Positions 428-9,553 of a stretch of DNA of 14,402 nucleotides are shown here, piece after piece. The stretch is from contig CAVRJG010000061.1 in NCBI GenBank assembly GCA_963721455.1, positions 1-14,402 on the forward strand. The letters are read 5' to 3'. Position 1 is the stretch's first letter, and each line of letters starts with the position of its first letter. The position numbers and the translations under genes are program-made. Source of the stretch: an uncultured Methanosarcinaceae archaeon. GTDB lineage: Archaea; Halobacteriota; Methanosarcinia; Methanosarcinales; Methanosarcinaceae. Under the pieces are notes generated by a model that worked only from the letters and a program-made list of their open reading frames with translations, was not told the origin of the DNA and searched no databases.

Positions 428-960
428 GATTACCTTAATGGCCTGCTTCTCCTACCCTATAGGAAAAATCTGAGAAAAATGGCAATTTACTGTTGCAAAT
501 GCTCTAGCAACCAATCATTAAGCCATTTCCTCTCAAATTCTCCCCGGCCTTCTGCAGGTCTCCTAAAATCTGTTCGAACAAAAGCCATTCAAACTATAGG
601 CAAAAATGGTGTTCTTATACTTGACGAATCAGGCATAAAAAAATCAGGAAATTGTTCTGTCGGAGTTTCTCATTAGTATTGCGGCAACTCGGGAAAAGAG
701 GACAATTGTCAGGTTGGAGTATTCCTTGCGTATTTTAAAAAAGAAGAGAATGTTGATGGATGAAAGATTATATTCCTCAAAAATGGATTGATGACAAAGT
801 ACGTTGTTTAAAGGCTAAAGTTCCTCTTGAGGAGATTAGGTTCCGAACAAAGTATGAGCTTGGTCTTGAAATGATTGATAATGCAATAGAAGAGGGTATT
901 CCCTTCTCCTATATCACAATAGATGGATTTATATCACAATAGAGAAGTTTACGGGGGAAA
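428..960 (+). pseudogene. IS701-family transposase remnant
   Basis: Pieces translate to YLNGLL..RKNLRKMA, QSLSHFLSNSP, LILDESGIKKSG.SVGVSH*YCGNSGKEDNCQVGVFLAY, IPQKW...FRTKYELGLEMI..GIPFSYITIDGF..YG, which are IS701 DDE motifs. It has an in-frame TAG at 674-676, frameshifts around 735-775, a 20-bp duplication, and is truncated at about 960. Confidence 0.85.
910..949 (+). repeat. Imperfect 20-bp tandem duplication inside the IS701 remnant
   Basis: TATATCACAATAGA occurs at 910-923 and 930-943 and breaks the DGFYG motif. Confidence 0.75.
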
Positions 961-1115
961 TTTCCCGAAGTATACTGGGAAACTGCCAACGGGGCAATCC
1001 CCAGCAACTTTGCCGACGTTGCCTGTGACTGTCCTTTTTTACAAGTTCGATTGCAAGACTGGCCCTTATTGCGGGGGATCAGATCCCACACAATCTTCTG
1101 ACACGGAGTTTCCAT
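961..1115 (-). pseudogene. N-terminal part of an archaeal HTH transcriptional regulator (COG2522-like), C-terminally truncated
   Basis: Removing one G from G5 (1073-1077) and adding one T to T6 (1035-1040) gives METPCQKIVWDLIPAIRASLAIELVKKGQSQATSAKLLGIAPLAVSQYTSG(K). This fits the PC..LPAIRA.LA..L...G.SQ...A.LLG...AVSQY..GKRG family pattern. The sequence runs into the IS701 remnant at 960/961. Family assignment is from recognition, not a search. Confidence 0.75.
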
Positions 1116-1139
1116 AATTACCATCACTTTTTGAGATTT

Positions 1140-1254
1140 GGTCGTGGGTGTGAGTTATTGAAAACCGTAAACACAAGAATCTCTCTACATTTTCCTCAAA
1201 TACAGGAGATGTACTCGCTTTTTCGGAATTGATCAATAACTCATGTACACGACC
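1140..1254. repeat. Long imperfect inverted repeat with an internal hairpin, upstream of the HTH gene
   Basis: Arms 1140-1161 (GGTCGTG-GGTG-TGAGTTATTGA) and 1233-1254 (TCAATAACTCA-TGTA-CACGACC) give 18 Watson-Crick pairs. Internal stem 1186-1196/1204-1213. Confidence 0.6.
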
Positions 1255-1401
1255 TGAAATTTTACAATTGAAAACGAACATACCTTATATACATATATTT
1301 ATTTTTATTATGAAAAATAATAATAAGATTAATCCAGAATGCAATAACTTCAAGAAAATCGGCAGGTTTTTGAGAATTTATCTATTTTACCCAGTGATAT
1401 T

Positions 1402-2846
1402 CATTGGTCATCGGTTAAGAACTTACTTCCATCTCCCAATGGTGTTTTTCATTTCACCTTTTCATTAAAACCATTCTTCTCTGAACCTTTCTCTGTTTAT
1501 ATGCGGATCCAATGCTTGACTTTCATATACATTCATTATCGTTTCAAAAGTTCTTTGAATTCCACATCTATTCAGAATTACTGTCAACAAATCTGATGCA
1601 TTCTCTGCAAATATTGTGCTCCAACGTAACTGCGTATATTGAGCCATTTTTTCAGGATGAGCTGTTGAGTTTCTTACAAGAGTATAAATCCTTCTGCTAA
1701 CGATTAGTGTTAACATTGCTGTCCAGATTAGAGCCTCAATTACCTGCACATTCTTTGTTTCAAGAACGTCAAGAGCGTATTTGCTTTTTAACTCCTTAAA
1801 CAACAGTTCTATGTCCCATCTTGCTCCATATAATTTTGCAATGTCTTTTGCATTCAAAACATCTTTCTGAATATTTGTGATATATATGTGATGCTTTTCA
1901 TCCTCATCATTATATACCGCAACAAGACGTACAAGCATCTCATCCTGCTTTTGTTTGCCTTTATATGCTCTTCTTTTGAATGCTATTTTTACAACTGCAT
2001 CAATATCTTTTCCAGAAAGTTGTTCAATACACTCACTAACAGGTTTTCCCGCGAACTCTTTGCTTTTTGTCTTAGAAAGTCCCTCTTCAACAGAAACAAG
2101 AATAGGATCCATATTCTTCCTTATTCTTGAAACAAAATATCCTCCGTTTTCCTCAACTCTTGCGAACATTTGAGTTTTGTAAAAACCAAGATCTACAAGA
2201 AGAATACGGTCTTTGATCTAGGGACCTATTTTCAATGTTTTGATCTCAGCTGTTTTTTCAGAGTATAAAGTAACGGTTTTAGGGCCGTTAGCAACTGCAC
2301 TTACCATAACTCCTACTTTTACACCTGCAGCTACTGTTCTTGCTCTTGCTGCTGGAAACTTGTCTGCTAAAGAGGAGTGAAGACGAACAATTGTGCTGTC
2401 CTGAATGAGAACATCCTGGAAGTTTTCGAGTTTCTTGCTAAGTTTTCTACCAGGTTCTTTTGCAAGCTCTTCTATGCCGTGAATAACACACTGATGGAGG
2501 AACTCAACAAGTTGTGGAGTGAATCTATAGTACCAGCTGCTGTCGCTTAGGGTCTTATTTGATTCTTTTTCATAGTCTCTTTTCAAACTGGCAAGTGTAC
2601 GCTGCAAGCGGACACCAAAACCAAGAGTTAAAACCCAAAAGATGACGACAGGGTCAATTTTACGCTCACGTACTATGAGACAAGTTTCTTTGGCAGTTTC
2701 CCTTAACCACTCTTCGGGAAACATTCCCCGAAGAGAGTCTTCAAGAGTAGATGGGGGAAGAGGAGACATAGACGCACTAATATTAAGATTATTAATATAA
2801 AAACACATACGGGAGTGATTTAATAACGCTTAACCGATGACGCATG
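1402..2846 (-). mobile_element. Complete IS4-family (ISH8 group) insertion sequence, 1445 bp
   Basis: TIRs CATTGGTCATCGGTTAAG (1402-1419) and the reverse complement of 2829-2846 (CATGCGTCATCGGTTAAG) are 16/18 identical. Perfect 10-bp target duplication CAGTGATATT at 1392-1401 and 2847-2856. Confidence 0.93.
1465..2769 (-). CDS. IS4/ISH8-group DDE transposase, 434 aa, interrupted only by one in-frame TAG (codon 184, 2218-2220)
   Basis: The two track ORFs are in the same frame: KIGP*IKDRILLVDLGFYKTQMFARV. Motifs QDST, VDLG and Y..RW.IE..FKELK (YREK) are present. Confidence 0.88.
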
Positions 2847-2861
2847 CAGTGATATTCTACG

Positions 2862-2914
2862 ATAAAACTTAAATAGTCGCGATTGTTATGATTATTCACA
2901 ATTGTGAAGGTGTA
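2862..2914 (+). promoter_or_regulatory. iscS promoter (BRE/TATA) with tandem palindromic operator-like boxes and RBS
   Basis: A-rich BRE then CTTAAATA 2868-2875. Degenerate box TCGCGATTGTTA 2877-2888. Perfect 14-bp palindrome TTCACAATTGTGAA 2895-2908. SD AGGTG 2908-2912 ahead of GTG 2918. Confidence 0.65.
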
Positions 2915-2917
2915 AGT

Positions 2918-4102
2918 GTGACATCTGGAGACAAGACCATTTACATGGACAACTCTGCTACGACTCCTGCAAGAAAAGAAGTTGTCGAAGAGATGATTCC
3001 CTACCTGACAGAAAATTTCGGAAACCCTTCTTCTATCTATGAGATCGGAAAAATCTCAAAACATGCAATCGACAAAGCAAGAAAAAAGGTTGCAGATGCT
3101 CTCGGCGCTGAAGAAAATGAGATCTATTTCACATCCGGTGGTACGGAATCCGATAACTGGGCAATTAAGGGGATAGCCTTTGCAAACAGGAATAAAGGAA
3201 AACACATAATCACCTCTTCTATCGAGCACCATGCAGTCCTGCACACCTGTTTGTGGCTGGAAGGGCAGGGGTTTGAGGTGACATACCTGCCTGTGGATAA
3301 ATATGGAATGGTGACCCTTGAGGAACTGAAAAACGCGATCAGAGACCGACACTATACTCATTTCCATAATGCTTGCGAACAATGAAATAGGGACAATTCA
3401 GCCCGTCGAAGAAATCGGAAAAATCGCAAGAGAGAAAAAGATATATTTCCACACGGATGCAGTGCAGGCAATAGGCCATGTCCCTATAGATGTCAAAAAA
3501 ATGAACATTGACCTTTTATCTCTTTCAGGGCACAAGTTCGAAGGGCCAAAGGGATGCGGGGCACTCTACATAAGAAAAGGGACAAAAATAGAAACCCTTC
3601 TGCACGGCGGAGCCCAGGAAAGAAAACGCAGGGCAGGAACCGAGAATGTCCCAGCCATCGTGGGGCTTGGAAAAGCAATAGAGCTTGCAACGGGCGAAAT
3701 TGAAGACTCAAATAAAACTCTGCAAGCGATGAGAGAACGCCTGATTGAAGGGCTTCTGAAGATCCCGAAAACCCACCTCAATGGACATCCCACACAGAGG
3801 CTTGCAAACAACGTGAATGTCACGTTTGAATACATAGAGGGCGAATCTCTCCTGCTTCTGTTAAATGCGAAAGGAATTTTTGCATCCACAGGAAGCGCGT
3901 GCAACTCTTCTTCTCTCGAACCCTCGCATGTGCTTACGGCCTGCGGAGTTCCGCACGAAATAGTCCACGGTTCACTCAGGCTGAGCCTTGGAAGGATGAA
4001 TACCGAAAAAGAGGTGGACAGGGTACTCGAGGCTTTACTCGAGATAGTGCAGAAGCTCAGAAATATGTCCCCGCTGACCCCAGGGAGTACAGGACTATTT
4101 GA
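2918..4102 (+). CDS. iscS: Cysteine desulfurase IscS/NifS (~394 aa after correcting two 1-nt indels)
   Basis: Motifs [25 protein letters not shown] (PLP Lys) and STGSACNS (catalytic Cys). Extra C at ~3346 ([12 protein letters not shown]). Probable missing C at 4078-4081, giving ...MSPLTPREYRTI* with TGA 4100-4102; as written the frame ends at 4139. Confidence 0.93.
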
Positions 4103-4196
4103 GATTATAAATAGGGAAATTACAGGGAATTTTGAGTAAGAAGAAAATCTCTTTAAAATAATCCGAGAATTGAAAAGTAGCATTGGAGGACATCTT

Positions 4197-4586
4197 ATGG
4201 ATTACAGCGTTAAAGTAATGGACCATTTTTCAAACCCCAGAAATATGGGGAGCATTGAGAACAGTGACGGAGTAGGGGAGGTTGGAAACGCGAAGTGCGG
4301 AGATATAATGAAGATCTTCCTTAAGGTGGAAGAAGATCGGATTGCGGACGTGAAGTTCCAGACCTTCGGGTGCGGAGCTGCAATCGCATCAAGCAGTATG
4401 GCAACCGAACTTATCAAAGGAAAAACCCTGGAAGAAGCCTGGAAACTTTCAAACAAAGCAGTTGCAGAGGCACTTGACGGACTTCCTCCGATAAAAATGC
4501 ACTGTTCAATGCTTGCAGAAGAGGCAATCCATGAGGCAATTAATGATTATCTTCGGAAAAAGGGACTTGAGCCCTGGAAGGATTGA
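4197..4586 (+). CDS. iscU: Fe-S cluster scaffold IscU/NifU-N (129 aa)
   Basis: DHFSNPRN, CGD, FGCG and LPPIKMHC motifs. SD GGAGG 4185-4189. Confidence 0.95.
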   Translation: MDYSVKVMDHFSNPRNMGSIENSDGVGEVGNAKCGDIMKIFLKVEEDRIADVKFQTFGCGAAIASSSMATELIKGKTLEEAWKLSNKAVAEALDGLPPIKMHCSMLAEEAIHEAINDYLRKKGLEPWKD

Positions 4587-4635
4587 CTCCGGCTATTTGA
4601 AAAATTATCACGAATTAAAGTCCTGGAGAACATAG

Positions 4636-5369
4636 ATGGAGAAAATTACAAATGAAAAGTATATCAGGCAGATAATGCTTTTTGGGGAAGAGGGCCAGGA
4701 AAAACTGAAGAAGACGCAAAAGTATTTGTTGCCGGGGCAGGAGGTCTGGGATCTCCGGTTTCTACCTATCTTGCAGTTGCAGGGGTAGGGAAAATAATTC
4801 TTGTGGATTTCGATTCAGTGGATCTCAGTAACCTTAACAGGCAATTTCTTCACCATGAAAAAGATATTGGGAGAGAGAAGATAAAATCCGCAGAGGAAAA
4901 ACTGCTCTCCATGAATCCTGAAATAAAAGTAGAGACGATCAGGGAAAAAATCACGGATGAAAATGCAGGCTCAATAGTTCCTCCTTGTGACCTGATTATA
5001 GACGCGCTGGATAATTTTGATACAAGGCATGTCCTGAACAGGCTTGCAGTGGAACGGAATATACCCCTGATTCACGGCGCTGTCTCAGGGTACAGAGGTC
5101 AGGCAACAACAATAATTCCGGGAAAAACTCCCTGCCTTTGCTGTATTTTCCCGAGCTCCTTCAAGAAAGAAGTATTTCCGGTACTTGGGACAACACCAGG
5201 GGTAATAGGCTCAATCCAGGCAAATGAAGCGATTAAATATCTGACAGGACAGGGAAAGCTTCTGGAAAATCGCCTTTTATTATGGGACGGCCTTTCATGC
5301 TCTTTCAGTGAACTTAATGTTAATAAGACAGAGAATTGCCCGGTGTGTGGAATCAATAAAACACAGTAA
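4636..5369 (+). CDS. ThiF/MoeB/E1-like adenylyltransferase (~244 aa; frameshift at ~4710)
   Basis: ATG 4636 with SD GGAG gives MEKITNEKYIRQIMLFGEEGQEKLK, then after a shift AKVFVAGAGGLGS. DFDSVDLSNLNRQ, DALDNFDTR and two CxxC motifs (CLCC, CPVC) follow. Confidence 0.88.
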
Positions 5370-5428
5370 AAAAATTGAAAAACAGGTTTCTGCAGTTTTA
5401 TACCTGCAGTTTGGGGAATGAGATTATT

Positions 5429-6343
5429 ATGGAAAATCAGTTAATTGCAGAAGAAATAAAAAAACTCAAACAGGAAAGGAACGCAATAATCCTTTCACAT
5501 TTTTACACACGCAGGGAAGTTCAGGAAGTTGCGGATTTTGTAGGGGATTCTCTCTCCCTCTGCAAAGCAGCAGTGAATTCAAAAGCAGAGGTTATAGTTT
5601 TTGCAGGCGTTCATTTTATGGCAGAGTCGGCATCAATTATTTCCCCCGAGAAACTGGTCCTTTTACCTGTTCCAGATGCAGGCTGCCCTATGGCAGATAT
5701 GGTCACAGTAAAGTCTCTTAGAAGTGAAAAAGAAAAACATCCGGAAGCAGCAGTTGTTTGCTATGTAAACAGTTCAGCCGCAGTAAAAGCCGAATCTGAT
5801 ATCTGCTGCACATCTGCAAATGCAATAAATGTGGTAAATTCAATTGAAAACCGGGAGATTATCTTTATTCCGGACAAAAACCTCGGAGCATTTGTATCCC
5901 TTCATACCGACAAAAAAATACATCTCTGGCCCGGATTCTGCCACGTTCACGAGAACATCCGTGATGAGAATATAAAAGAACTACAAAAAATGCATCCGGA
6001 TGCGGAATTTCTTGCACATCCCGAGTGCAGGCCTGAAGTCCTTAGCCTTGCGGACCATATTCTCAGTACATCAGGGATTGTAAAAGAAGTGGAAAGATCA
6101 GGTTCCACGGAATTTATAATCGGGACCGAAATGGAAATTGTCCAGAGCCTGAAAAGAAAGTATCCGGATAAAAAATTCTATCCTTCGTCAGAGAAGACTT
6201 TTTGCTACAATATGAAAAAAATCACTCTCGAATCCATTCTGAACAGCCTTCAGAATATGGAATACGAAATCCATGTTCCGGAGCATATAAGGGTAAAAGC
6301 CAGAAAGGCGCTGGACAGGATGCTTGAGATCCGCGGGAATTAA
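5429..6343 (+). CDS. nadA: Quinolinate synthase NadA ([4Fe-4S]), 304 aa
   Basis: GDS, GVHFMAE, GCPMA, YVNS, CTSAN, GFCHVH, HPEC, ST, GTE and C..MK motifs, including the three cluster cysteines. Confidence 0.96.
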   Translation: MENQLIAEEIKKLKQERNAIILSHFYTRREVQEVADFVGDSLSLCKAAVNSKAEVIVFAGVHFMAESASIISPEKLVLLPVPDAGCPMADMVTVKSLRSEKEKHPEAAVVCYVNSSAAVKAESDICCTSANAINVVNSIENREIIFIPDKNLGAFVSLHTDKKIHLWPGFCHVHENIRDENIKELQKMHPDAEFLAHPECRPEVLSLADHILSTSGIVKEVERSGSTEFIIGTEMEIVQSLKRKYPDKKFYPSSEKTFCYNMKKITLESILNSLQNMEYEIHVPEHIRVKARKALDRMLEIRGN

Positions 6344-6348
6344 AATAA

Positions 6349-6383
6349 AAGGAAGGAAATAGGGTTCTTTCCTTGATTTTTTT
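6349..6383 (+). terminator. Hairpin plus T-tract after nadA
   Basis: AAGGAAGGAA-(6 nt)-TTCTTTCCTT stem with one G-U, followed by T7 at 6377-6383. Confidence 0.65.
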
Positions 6384-6451
6384 CCGGAAATATTTTTCGA
6401 AATTGTCGACCTGTGCCATATTTTTACCTTTTTTAATATTTTCTTAATAAC

Positions 6452-6510
6452 AGATAATTATTTATGTTACCATCACAATTGTGAAGATGTAGTAACAATT
6501 GTAAATATAT
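6452..6510 (+). promoter_or_regulatory. Promoter of tRNA-Cys/metY/metX with tandem operator-like boxes
   Basis: TATA candidates TATTTATG 6459-6466 or TAAATATA 6502-6509. Perfect palindrome TCACAATTGTGA 6473-6484 and second box TAACAATTGTAA 6493-6504, 20 bp apart. Confidence 0.65.
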
Positions 6511-6527: not shown

Positions 6528-6599
6528 GTCAGAATGGCAGAGTGGCTATGCCTCCGGCTGCAACCCGGAGATACGTGAGTTCGATTCTCACTTCTGACT
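6528..6599 (+). tRNA. tRNA-Cys (anticodon GCA), intronless, CCA not encoded
   Basis: Acceptor stem GTCAGAA/TTCTGAC, D stem GCA/TGC with G13-A22, anticodon stem TCCGG/CCGGA with loop CT-GCA-AC (6560-6562), T stem GTGAG/CTCAC with loop TTCGATT, discriminator U73. Confidence 0.93.
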
Positions 6600-6661: not shown

Positions 6662-8035
<1,374 letters not shown>

Positions 8036-8037
8036 GA

Positions 8038-9553
8038 ATGGAAATTTCGGCCCAGATTCCTTCCTTTAAAAACTTTTTTTCGGAAAAAAAAGGCCAGAAT
8101 ATAGGGATAGTCCGTTCAATGAACTACGAAATCCCTGGAATTTTCAGGCTCGATAGTGGAAAAACCCTTTCCCGTGTCAGGATAGAATACGAGATGTACG
8201 GGAAGATGAATGCGGATAAAAGCAACGTTATCCTGATCTGCCATGCCCTTACGGGCGATGCCCATGCTGCCGGACTTCATGCAGGCGATAAAAAACCGGG
8301 ATGGTGGAATATCGTAATCGGCCCCAATAAGGCATTTGACACTGAGAAATATTGCATTATCTGTTCAAACATAATCGGGGGCTGTAAGGGTTCCACAGGC
8401 CCTTCTTCCATAAACCCTGAAACCGGAAAACACTACGGCATCTCGTTTCCTGTAATCACTATAGCGGATATGGTAAATGCCCAGAAAAAGCTGGTCGAGC
8501 ATCTTGGGGTAAAACAGCTTTTTGCAGTTGCAGGCGGCTCGATGGGCGGAATGCAGGTACTTCAATGGACAGTCAGCTATCCTGAAATGGTAAAGAAGGC
8601 GATTGCAATAGCTACCACTGCGTCTTCAACCCCGCAGCAAATCGCATTCGGGGCAATCGGAAGGAAAGCCATAACTGACGACCCGAAATGGAACGGGGGA
8701 AACTATTACGGGAAAGAAATACCTGCACAGGGACTTGCACTTGCCCGTATGATAGGGCATATTACATACCTGAGCGACGCTTCGATGCAGAAGAAGTTCG
8801 GAAGAGACCAGCAGGAGACAGCAGTGTCAGACCTTTCCCCCGAATTTTCAGGTTGAGAGTTACCTGAATTATCAGGGAGATACTTTTACAAAGCGTTTTG
8901 ATGCCAATTCATATCTTTATATTACAAAAGCAGTCGATTTCTTTGACCTTTCGAAGAACGGATCCCTTATTGAGGGTTTCTCAGGCGTTACTGCAAAATA
9001 CCTTGTAATTTCCATAACTTCAGACTGGTTATATCCTCCTTATCAAGCTCAAGAAATCGTATCAGCTCTTACTGCAAACGGAGTTGATGCAAAATACGAA
9101 GAAATGAGGTCTCAATACGGGCACGATGCTTTCCTGCTTGAAGAAGGGCAGCTGAACTACCTGATAAGGGGTTTTCTCTCACAAATTCTTGTAAGCGACA
9201 TCATGAACCAGAAGTTTTATTCGGTTTCCAGAGATGAAACAATAGAAAATGCATCAGTACTCATGGTAAAAAAGAAAGTGAACCATCTGCCTGTCGTATC
9301 AGAGGACGGAAAGCTTGAAGGCATTGTCACCTCCTGGGATATTACAAAAGCCGTCGCCTGCAAAATCACCGAATTGGATGAGATAATCACCCGCGACGTG
9401 AAATATGTACGCGAAGGCGAAAAAATTGAGACTGCGTCCTCAATAATGGAAAAATATTCTATTTCCGCACTCCCTGTAATCGACTCAGAGAACCGCATAA
9501 TAGGCATGGTTACAAGCGAGAGCATAAGCGCTCTTATCGGAAGGTTCAGTTAA
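8038..9553 (+). CDS. metX: Homoserine O-acetyltransferase MetX with C-terminal CBS pair (~504 aa; +1 frameshift at T4 8845-8848)
   Basis: [17 protein letters not shown] (nucleophile Ser) and ARMIGHITY. Removing one T gives [31 protein letters not shown], continuous with two CBS repeats. Start 8038 (SD GAGGT) or 8032 (ATGA overlap with the metY stop). Confidence 0.92.

Follow-up and report, generated by a model that had tools for sequence, protein, structure and literature searches.

A palindrome shared by iscS and tRNA-Cys promoters as probable operator of a Methanosarcina sulfur/cysteine regulon, with a small helix-turn-helix protein as candidate repressor

The stretch of DNA analysed here, the window, is the entire 14.4-kb contig C61 of an uncultured Methanosarcinaceae archaeon, whose genome (G000) comprises 3.94 Mb in 73 contigs with 42.5% G+C; its protein relatives assign it to Methanosarcina. 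The window carries the iron-sulfur (Fe-S) assembly genes iscS and iscU, followed by thiF and nadA, and then, behind a second promoter, a tRNA-Cys gene with metY and metX. Both promoters contain the palindrome TTCACAATTGTGAA. Comparison with related genomes suggests that this palindrome is probably the operator of a Methanosarcina sulfur/cysteine regulon, and that a 118-residue helix-turn-helix (HTH) protein is its repressor. The individual parts of this proposal differ in strength: it is very likely that the palindrome is an operator and quite likely that the HTH protein binds it, while repression in response to a sulfur or Fe-S signal is plausible.

The exact 12-mer TCACAATTGTGA occurs at 2896-2907, upstream of iscS, and at 6473-6484, upstream of the tRNA-Cys gene. 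With its flanks it forms the 14-mer given above, and the two exact sites have an extended identity of 18/19 (…GAAG[G/A]TGTA). Each has a weaker companion at a centre-to-centre distance of 19 bp (iscS) or 20 bp (tRNA-Cys); the companion 12-mer at 6493-6504, TAACAATTGTAA, has 2 mismatches. A third weak box, on the promoter of the HTH gene remnant described below, is a candidate autoregulatory operator. All of these boxes, including the extension, are found where an earlier note on this DNA had placed them, and the pairs directly follow the TATA-like elements CTTAAATAG and ATAATTATTTATG, as that note had also stated. Box 2 of the iscS promoter ends 1 nt ahead of an AAGGTG Shine-Dalgarno-like run.

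By window statistics, the weak boxes are not significant: there are 13 matches at up to 3 mismatches versus 9.63 expected, and at least 13 are seen in 35 of 200 shuffles. The window has 6 copies of the exact 8-mer core ACAATTGT, where 0.33 would be expected, and none of 200 shuffles reaches 6. In the G000 genome the 12-mer has 10 exact copies versus 0.37 expected, making it joint second of all palindromic 12-mers and first of 60 palindromes with the same composition. Because the iscS locus is present in three copies and contigs C23 and C29 are duplicates, these 10 copies correspond to about six independent sites, namely those at iscS and tRNA-Cys, a pair in tandem on C23/C29, and those on C50 and C7. 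The 30 other genomes of the genus have 0 to 15 exact sites each, compared with 0 to 2 for a reversed control pattern (3 in G000). Of the 9 exact sites in the complete genome G041, 6 are intergenic with respect to the called open reading frames (ORFs); the other 3 fall inside the 5' end of an ORF, where the longest possible ORF was used and the true start may differ. The motif is therefore both over-represented and confined to promoters.

The palindrome is also conserved in orthologous promoters whose flanks have diverged. The alignment of iscS and tRNA-Cys/metY promoters that the earlier note had proposed shows the motif in both sets. We took the orthologous tRNA-Cys regions from the 30 other genomes of the genus. 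For the metY-linked tRNA-Cys, two recognisable boxes follow the TATA in all 25 rows, which represent 24 distinct loci including that of the window, with a shared layout of TATA, about 6 nt, box A, 6 nt, box B, about 20 nt, and tRNA. The CAATTG core is exact in both boxes at 12 of the 24 loci and in one box at 9, and 3 loci have 1-nt core variants in both; three further rows of the same comparison belong to a different tRNA-Cys gene that has no boxes. When 23 full-length tRNA-Cys regions, 22 of them from other Methanosarcina genomes, are aligned with MAFFT, mean column identity is 0.45 for the distal flank, 0.89 for the TATA, 0.91 for box A, 0.62 for the spacer, 0.91 for box B, 0.70 for the leader, and 0.94 for the tRNA, which puts the conservation of the two boxes on a par with that of the tRNA. 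On the iscS side, the pair TTCACAATTGTGAA-N5-ATAACAATTGTGAC abuts the iscS TATA in 12 of 16 Methanosarcina loci with an HTH orthologue (420 nt shown), and TT[C/T]TCAATTGTAAA lies just behind the HTH gene's own TATA in 14 of 16 Methanosarcina loci and in 2 of 2 further ones. Since other species hold canonical boxes at the same positions, the companion boxes of the window are decayed canonical boxes.

The position of the boxes is similar at all seven promoter types (iscS, tRNA-Cys/metY, HTH, cysK, tRNA-Cys arrays, a 95-residue ORF, and distant HTH homologues). They lie 0 to 27 nt downstream of the TATA and would therefore cover the region of polymerase recruitment and transcription start. There are one to four copies per promoter, with neighbours commonly 19-20 or 29-30 bp apart, so that neighbouring sites would share one helix face; distances of 24, 35, and 52 bp are also seen.

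The genes downstream of the boxes form a coherent set. In G041, exact sites are present ahead of tRNA-Cys-metY-metX/CBS; ahead of iscS-iscU-thiF-nadA; ahead of cysK-cysE at two loci, each directly downstream of a copy of the HTH gene; ahead of genes for a PP-loop protein, a cysteine desulfurase, and FdhD; ahead of a stand-alone tRNA-Cys; ahead of tRNA-Cys genes followed by a SepSecS/SepCysS-like gene and a second O-acetylhomoserine (OAH) sulfhydrylase; and ahead of a small ORF behind a NifH-like gene. Targets in other genomes are iscS2 (G007, G042, and G015), cysK (G007, G004, and G015), a NifS-like desulfurase (G007), tRNA-Cys with OAH sulfhydrylase (G007 and G014), two tRNA-Cys genes with a SepCysS-like gene (G004), a hybrid-cluster protein (G007, G014, and G006), a ThiS-like carrier (G004), and the 95-residue ORF (G004 and G014). 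In G041 and these six genomes, boxes thus precede genes for cysteine, homocysteine, Fe-S, sulfur-carrier, and tRNA-Cys functions. A genome scan for the motif at sulfur genes had been proposed in the earlier note, and it does return cysK-cysE, the SepCysS-like gene, and further sulfur genes. The regulon as first drawn, with Fe-S, NAD, homocysteine, and tRNA-Cys promoters, holds up, and was drawn too narrowly, as it also takes in extra tRNA-Cys genes, the hybrid-cluster protein, and the ThiS-like gene. Two sites in G000 were rejected as regulon members: C33:43345 lies inside an ABC permease frame, and C7:11873 is at a contig end without an ORF.

Several side observations concern these targets. 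In complete genomes, most exact sites are within about 45 kb of the HTH gene. The roughly 45-kb stretch of G041 looks like a sulfur-metabolism island; its further gene products include two nitrogenase-component-1-like proteins, a NifH-like protein, ThiI, ThiE, ThiM, FdhD, and PdxS (L070 13464-16370, L071 3423-4337). The gene for the hybrid-cluster protein (Prismane family), an unexpected member of a sulfur regulon, has its box about 140 nt upstream in G006 (L074), G007 (L120), and G014 (L132). Two perfect boxes precede the conserved 95-residue ORF, which belongs to no known family and lies downstream of a NifH-like gene. The two are 30 bp apart in G000 (L003, C23, 4295-4336, with a duplicate on C29), where the ORF is interrupted, 29 bp apart in G006 (L076, C9, 3178-3543), and 52 bp apart in G004 (L126). 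The two cysK paralogues of G041 have a leader of about 230 nt between box and start codon (L069 9363-9602; L072 3023-3303). These leaders contain conserved blocks and no Rfam family, and may provide a second, RNA-level layer of control.

The intact copy of the HTH gene in G000 is on contig C60 and encodes 118 residues, with an XRE-like HTH at about residues 31-54. Five cysteines (Cys5, Cys87, Cys90, Cys100, and Cys104) are invariant when orthologues, paralogues, and distant homologues, 22 sequences in all, are aligned, and the recognition-helix stretch AVSQYxSxKRG is likewise invariant in 22 of 22 family members. The protein has no NCBIfam family. It matches P22_Cro weakly (E 0.003), its Atlas neighbours are HTH_3 clusters, and more than 600 close relatives are annotated merely as "transcriptional regulator" or "hypothetical". 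The AF2 model has five helices, including a single long helix before the HTH, an HTH core with a predicted local distance difference test (pLDDT) score of 86-93, a C-terminal CxxC…CxxxC module in addition to Cys5, and a disordered tail. A sequence search of solved structures gave chance-level rows only (E 0.047 and 0.19), and Foldseek against the PDB gave no match at E<=0.001, only matches at E>=0.6. The best VIA-align result is the DeoR DNA-binding domain (Z 6.6, root-mean-square deviation 2.0, 48 residues), within the range of common arrangements, and the closest folds among solved structures are those of DNA-binding HTH domains of a generic kind. The earlier note saw no regulator of the IscR/CymR type in the window. 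A Pfam scan of the protein contains no Rrf2 at E<=10, and a G000-wide search with PF02082 gave only partial matches, inside frames of 231 to 754 residues, and no canonical Rrf2/IscR.

What links this protein to the motif is genomic position and, with exceptions, co-occurrence. The HTH family is found beside ISC genes, divergent from iscS2 in Methanosarcina and as iscS-iscU-HTH in genus g2 of family f2; in G019, which has the latter arrangement, there is no CAATTG-type palindrome upstream of iscS. The HTH gene carries a box on its own promoter, and so do homologues of about 40% identity from another family of the order (three genera): [A/T]TAACAATTGTTAA is present about 13 nt past their own TATA at 11 of 12 loci, and as a 1-nt variant at the remaining one. 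Among paralogue-type loci, none of 9 has a box. A full-length orthologue is present in 23 of the 30 same-genus genomes, and all 23 have 1 to 15 exact sites. Three genomes, and no others, have no site (G009, G011, and G013), and all three are without the orthologue. The remaining four without a full-length orthologue are G035, G016, G032, and G006; in G035 the gene is cut by a contig end, so that its absence is only apparent. The earlier proposal that a divergent Cys-containing HTH protein is the regulator is thus supported, with a correction: the gene carries the box and co-occurs with the motif in most of the genomes, but the copy in the window is a dead remnant. In G025 (contig C92; L023/L093 165-1812), which belongs to another family, the HTH homologue and a YcaO gene are encoded divergently, and the box occupies the stretch that separates the two; judging from the family name, this is a possible further sulfur link (thioamidation).

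A number of observations weigh against the proposed repressor. G016 (75% complete) and G032 (81%) have sites, and an orthologue was not detected in them. G006 (99% complete, 10 contigs) is a true exception: it keeps 10 exact sites, tandem arrays included, with a 38% paralogue only, no orthologue, and no IscS2. Its sites may thus be bound by another protein or by the paralogue, or the island may have failed to assemble. In G010, the sister of G006, iscS2 and the HTH gene share a 1.7-kb contig, making an assembly gap in G006 plausible, if unproven. A subfamily-like homologue in G049 has no box within 170 nt. The match of the protein to HTH_3 (PF01381) is under the Pfam cut-off (18.0 bits versus 23, E 0.0031). 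Residues 102-118 of the AF2 model, which include Cys104, have a pLDDT below 50 and the Cys100 block has a mean of 65, and it is equally possible that the Cys cluster is a structural zinc site. By tblastn, G000 has neither cysK nor the SepCysS-like paralogue; its regulon is small and partly decayed, with several targets frameshifted. We infer repression from box position only, and the case as a whole is a comparison of genomes that are related and thus not independent.

A rival reading is that the sulfur-regulon operator is real but has another binder, either the ubiquitous 37-38% paralogue or an unrelated protein, with the HTH protein as a regulated neighbour. The sites of G006 speak for this, as does the fact that the paralogue has the same invariant recognition-helix residues. 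The paralogue nevertheless occurs in motif-free genomes, so specificity is not readable from the recognition helix alone. A small winged-HTH (HTH_24) gene lies about 245 nt past a site in G007, and a similar gene is located further downstream of the C23 pair in G000, which provides a possible unrelated binder. However, the paralogue is present in the siteless G009, G011, and G013, it is the distant orthologue-type homologues and not the nine paralogue-type loci that carry the box on their own promoters, and the contig of G010 makes an assembly gap in G006 plausible. We consider another binder unlikely, and prefer the HTH protein.

The HTH protein is read as a repressor because the boxes follow the TATA and because known archaeal repressors block polymerase recruitment from there. 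Either sign of regulation would fit the data, and in the tRNA-Cys array of G006 the mature tRNA begins 8-10 nt after a box that is itself about 27 nt past the TATA, unlike the arrangement at the iscS promoter. An activator or dual regulator, which would induce sulfur assimilation when sulfur or Fe-S clusters are short, could be accommodated by such a layout. On the other hand, in each of the seven promoter types the boxes lie at the TATA or behind it, the position from which MDR1, LrpA, Phr, and NrpR repress, whereas archaeal activators usually act upstream of the B recognition element and TATA, and activation is in our view improbable. We give hardly any weight to the idea that the palindrome functions in RNA, as a leader hairpin or processing signal, or is the remnant of a mobile repeat that spread with duplicated promoters. 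It is true that some sites are transcribed if transcription starts where predicted, that tRNA-Cys genes and their promoters are tandemly duplicated, and that the genome is rich in insertion sequences (IS) and short repeats. But leader RNA folds no better than shuffles (z-scores -0.63, +0.77, and +0.27), Rfam at the gathering threshold matches only tRNAs in the window and five loci, iscS box 1 and box A follow the TATA but precede the predicted start, and the flanks of sites at different genes are unrelated. An operator bound by a repressor remains our preferred reading.

The boxed tRNA-Cys of the window is an isodecoder distinct from the two housekeeping tRNA-Cys genes of G000 (C52:119175-119395). 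Position 37 is A in the window gene (loop CUGCAAC) versus G in both housekeeping genes (CUGCAGA), and the A37 column is conserved in 23 aligned sequences; acceptor stem and body are likewise unlike those of the housekeeping genes. The m1G37 modification matters for SepRS and CysRS. Of the three tRNA-Cys genes in G000, the window's alone has boxes. In G006 (L073, C1, 4021-5830), G041 (L070 4870-9003), and G004 (L125 1501-2064), between two and four tRNA-Cys genes form an array in which most members have a TATA and a box to themselves; the last tRNA-Cys lies 12-13 nt before a 460-residue SepSecS/SepCysS-like gene, with a second OAH sulfhydrylase behind it. G006 has four tRNA-Cys in a row: three begin 8-10 nt past a box, and the fourth is about 265 nt past a fourth box and 12 nt ahead of the SepCysS-like gene. 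Since such arrays precede the SepCysS-like gene much as the window's tRNA-Cys precedes metY, it is a recurring design for operons of sulfur amino-acid genes to have a tRNA in their leader. A conserved ORF of about 155 residues, of no family and ending in …SSYCC, lies between boxed tRNA-Cys genes in G006 (L073 4315-4791) and G041 (L070 7428-7892). RNA evidence comes from one wetland metatranscriptome (X1; 19% of words, contigs only), whose library may contain DNA. Contigs of this locus have 90-100% identity, and they include the tRNA-Cys joined to a non-templated CCA, indicating mature tRNA. A 1418-nt contig spans the 3' part of tRNA-Cys into metY, although contigs cannot show starts, levels, or single transcripts, and gaps in their coverage carry no information.

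We propose that the small HTH protein would bind the boxes as a dimer, and cooperatively where they are paired. It would repress its own gene, iscS2-iscU2-thiF-nadA, and tRNA-Cys-metY-metX, as well as, where present, cysK-cysE, the SepCysS-like/OAH-sulfhydrylase operon with its dedicated tRNA-Cys genes, the second cysteine desulfurase, the ThiS-like carrier, and the hybrid-cluster protein. The five cysteines would most likely hold an Fe-S cluster or serve as a thiol/persulfide switch. DNA binding could in this way be tied to sulfur or Fe-S sufficiency, making the protein a functional analogue of IscR/CymR with an unrelated fold. At the window locus, where the nearby regulator copy is dead, control would be exerted in trans from the intact C60 copy. 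A more ambitious version, which we offer tentatively and regard as somewhat doubtful, is that the protein is the founder of an archaeal family of Fe-S/persulfide-sensing HTH repressors, a counterpart of IscR/CymR outside Rrf2, that couples Fe-S assembly to both cysteine routes and also controls the A37 tRNA-Cys isodecoders. If true, the cell would produce the tRNA on which cysteine is made by the tRNA-dependent route only under a shortage of sulfur amino acids, since the isodecoders sit in the leaders of the metY and SepCysS-like operons.

How does this compare with known systems? The likeness to IscR, the Rrf2-type [2Fe-2S] regulator of E. coli and other bacteria, is that a small regulator is encoded with iscS/iscU and has cysteines that could hold a cluster, and that autoregulation and control of Fe-S assembly genes are suggested for it too. 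Regulators of the IscR/CymR family have an Rrf2 winged-helix domain of about 130 residues, and three Cys (plus His) ligate the [2Fe-2S] cluster. By contrast, the HTH protein has no Rrf2 domain, its HTH type and operator are different, and its targets include cysteine and homocysteine synthesis and tRNA genes. In CymR (Rrf2; Bacillus/Staphylococcus) and CysB (LysR; enterobacteria) one factor likewise co-ordinates cysK/cysE-type and other sulfur genes, but protein families and motifs are unrelated, and the promoter architecture here is archaeal. The archaeal repressors NrpR (Methanococcus/Methanosarcina), MDR1, LrpA, Phr, and SurR provide a parallel in their palindromes, often tandem, over the polymerase recruitment site, although their folds and operator sequences are unlike those of the HTH protein. 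NrpR binds GGAA-N6-TTCC and SurR binds GTT-N3-AAC; SurR has a CxxC redox switch and responds to sulfur. To our knowledge, none of these five controls cysteine, Fe-S, or tRNA-Cys genes. XRE/Cro-type regulators (HTH_3) share weak matches, a short protein, and a palindromic target; here the protein is below the HTH_3 cut-off and has an added long helix, the CxxC…CxxxC module, and Cys5.

Few known organisms have as high a demand for sulfur and Fe-S clusters as methanogens. The isc2 cluster of M. acetivorans, which is the same locus, clusters with methionine and NAD genes, and the accessible part of the report on it does not describe a regulator (PMC7585200). The accessible part of another study reports a joint decrease in expression of cysK, cysE, and methionine-pathway genes in perchlorate-exposed M. 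barkeri (Harris et al. 2021; PMC8196204), which is compatible with one regulon. Our literature search, with subscription papers and supplements outside its view, found no published motif or regulator for these genes, and the exact motif string appears in unrelated contexts only. The searchable literature names no regulator of methanogen cysteine, homocysteine, or Fe-S assembly genes. A repressor-operator-regulon system as such is familiar; what we did not find described are the protein family, the operator, and the inclusion of a dedicated tRNA-Cys. We know of no described precedent for transcriptional control of dedicated tRNA-Cys isodecoders. Such control would bear on why Methanosarcina retains two routes to Cys-tRNA, and the regulon map ties poorly understood genes (the SepCysS-like paralogue, the 95-residue ORF, the NifH-like neighbours, and the hybrid-cluster protein) to sulfur metabolism. 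A defined operator with a named candidate protein is a directly testable question in the genetically tractable Methanosarcina, and the operator could act as a sulfur-responsive promoter part in methanogen engineering.

The features of the window are listed in the table. Contig C61 is a decaying copy of the locus, in which regulator, iscS, thiF, and metX-CBS are broken and two insertion sequences and a short repeat have inserted. In the regulator remnant, residues 1-52 alone are recognisable, with 71% identity of C61:960-1115 to the intact C60 copy. The short repeat, which has at least 20 genomic copies, has inserted so that it separates the start codon of the regulator from the box on the regulator's promoter. 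The IS4 element is bordered by the 9-bp direct repeat CAGTGATAT at 1392-1400 and 2847-2855, and its transposase is interrupted by a stop, giving 1465-2169 and 2218-2808. It lies between the regulator remnant and iscS, ending 21 nt ahead of the iscS TATA, and homology to C60 starts again to its right at about 2851. The gene directly divergent from iscS in the window is therefore this transposase and not, as first supposed, the HTH gene.

Table. Features of the window (contig C61) around the palindromic boxes.
Feature	Position	Strand	Basis or remarks
IS701-like fragments	479-942		IS701 matches
HTH regulator gene remnant (pseudogene)	909-1127	-	frame errors; truncated by the IS701-like fragments
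Multi-copy short repeat, about 115-130 nt	1137-1264		blastn of window 880-1402 against the genome
Box on the regulator's own promoter (candidate)	1262-1273	-	TTACAATTGAAA, 3 mismatches; minus strand TTTCAATTGTAA
IS4-family insertion sequence with terminal inverted repeats	1401-2846	-	NCBIfam transpos_IS4_1 on both transposase halves
TATA-like element, iscS promoter (predicted)	2868-2876	+	CTTAAATAG; opposite-strand TATTTAAG kept in orthologous loci
iscS box 1, degenerate	2877-2888		TCGCGATTGTTA, 3 mismatches; GTCACAATTGTTAT in other species
iscS box 2	2895-2908		perfect 14-mer TTCACAATTGTGAA, over the predicted start site
iscS2-type cysteine desulfurase	2918-4139	+	ORFs 2888-3385 and 3369-4139 match NifS/IscS models end to end
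iscU2-type scaffold	4197-4586	+	NifU_clost, 231 bits
ThiF/MoeB/E1-like adenylyltransferase, frameshifted	4635-5369	+	open for 4803-5369 only
nadA, quinolinate synthase	5429-6343	+	NadA, 435 bits
TATA-like element, tRNA-Cys promoter	6454-6466	+	ATAATTATTTATG
tRNA-Cys box A	6472-6485		ATCACAATTGTGAA
tRNA-Cys box B	6492-6505		GTAACAATTGTAAA; consensus ATCACAATTGTGAA
tRNA-Cys (GCA)	6528-6599	+	ARAGORN; Rfam tRNA, 55.7 bits
metY, O-acetylhomoserine sulfhydrylase	6692-8035	+	TIGR01326, 649 bits
metX, homoserine O-acetyltransferase with C-terminal CBS pair	8032-9553	+	split: 8032-8856 and 9104-9553

The iscS region has two further copies in G000, on C60 (96.1% identity over 2496 nt) and C17 (95.4% over 1534 nt); the three, 95-96% identical, are either real paralogues or co-assembled strain variants. 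On C60, iscS (404 residues), iscU, and the thiF form are intact and the HTH gene is divergent from iscS. In the window, iscS has an in-frame GTG start at 2918 and is frameshifted near 3346-3385, and a related RNA contig is one base shorter at 3346. A hairpin with a T-run lies 3' of nadA, ahead of the next promoter. Uninterrupted MetX-CBS, as found in G041, has 521 residues.

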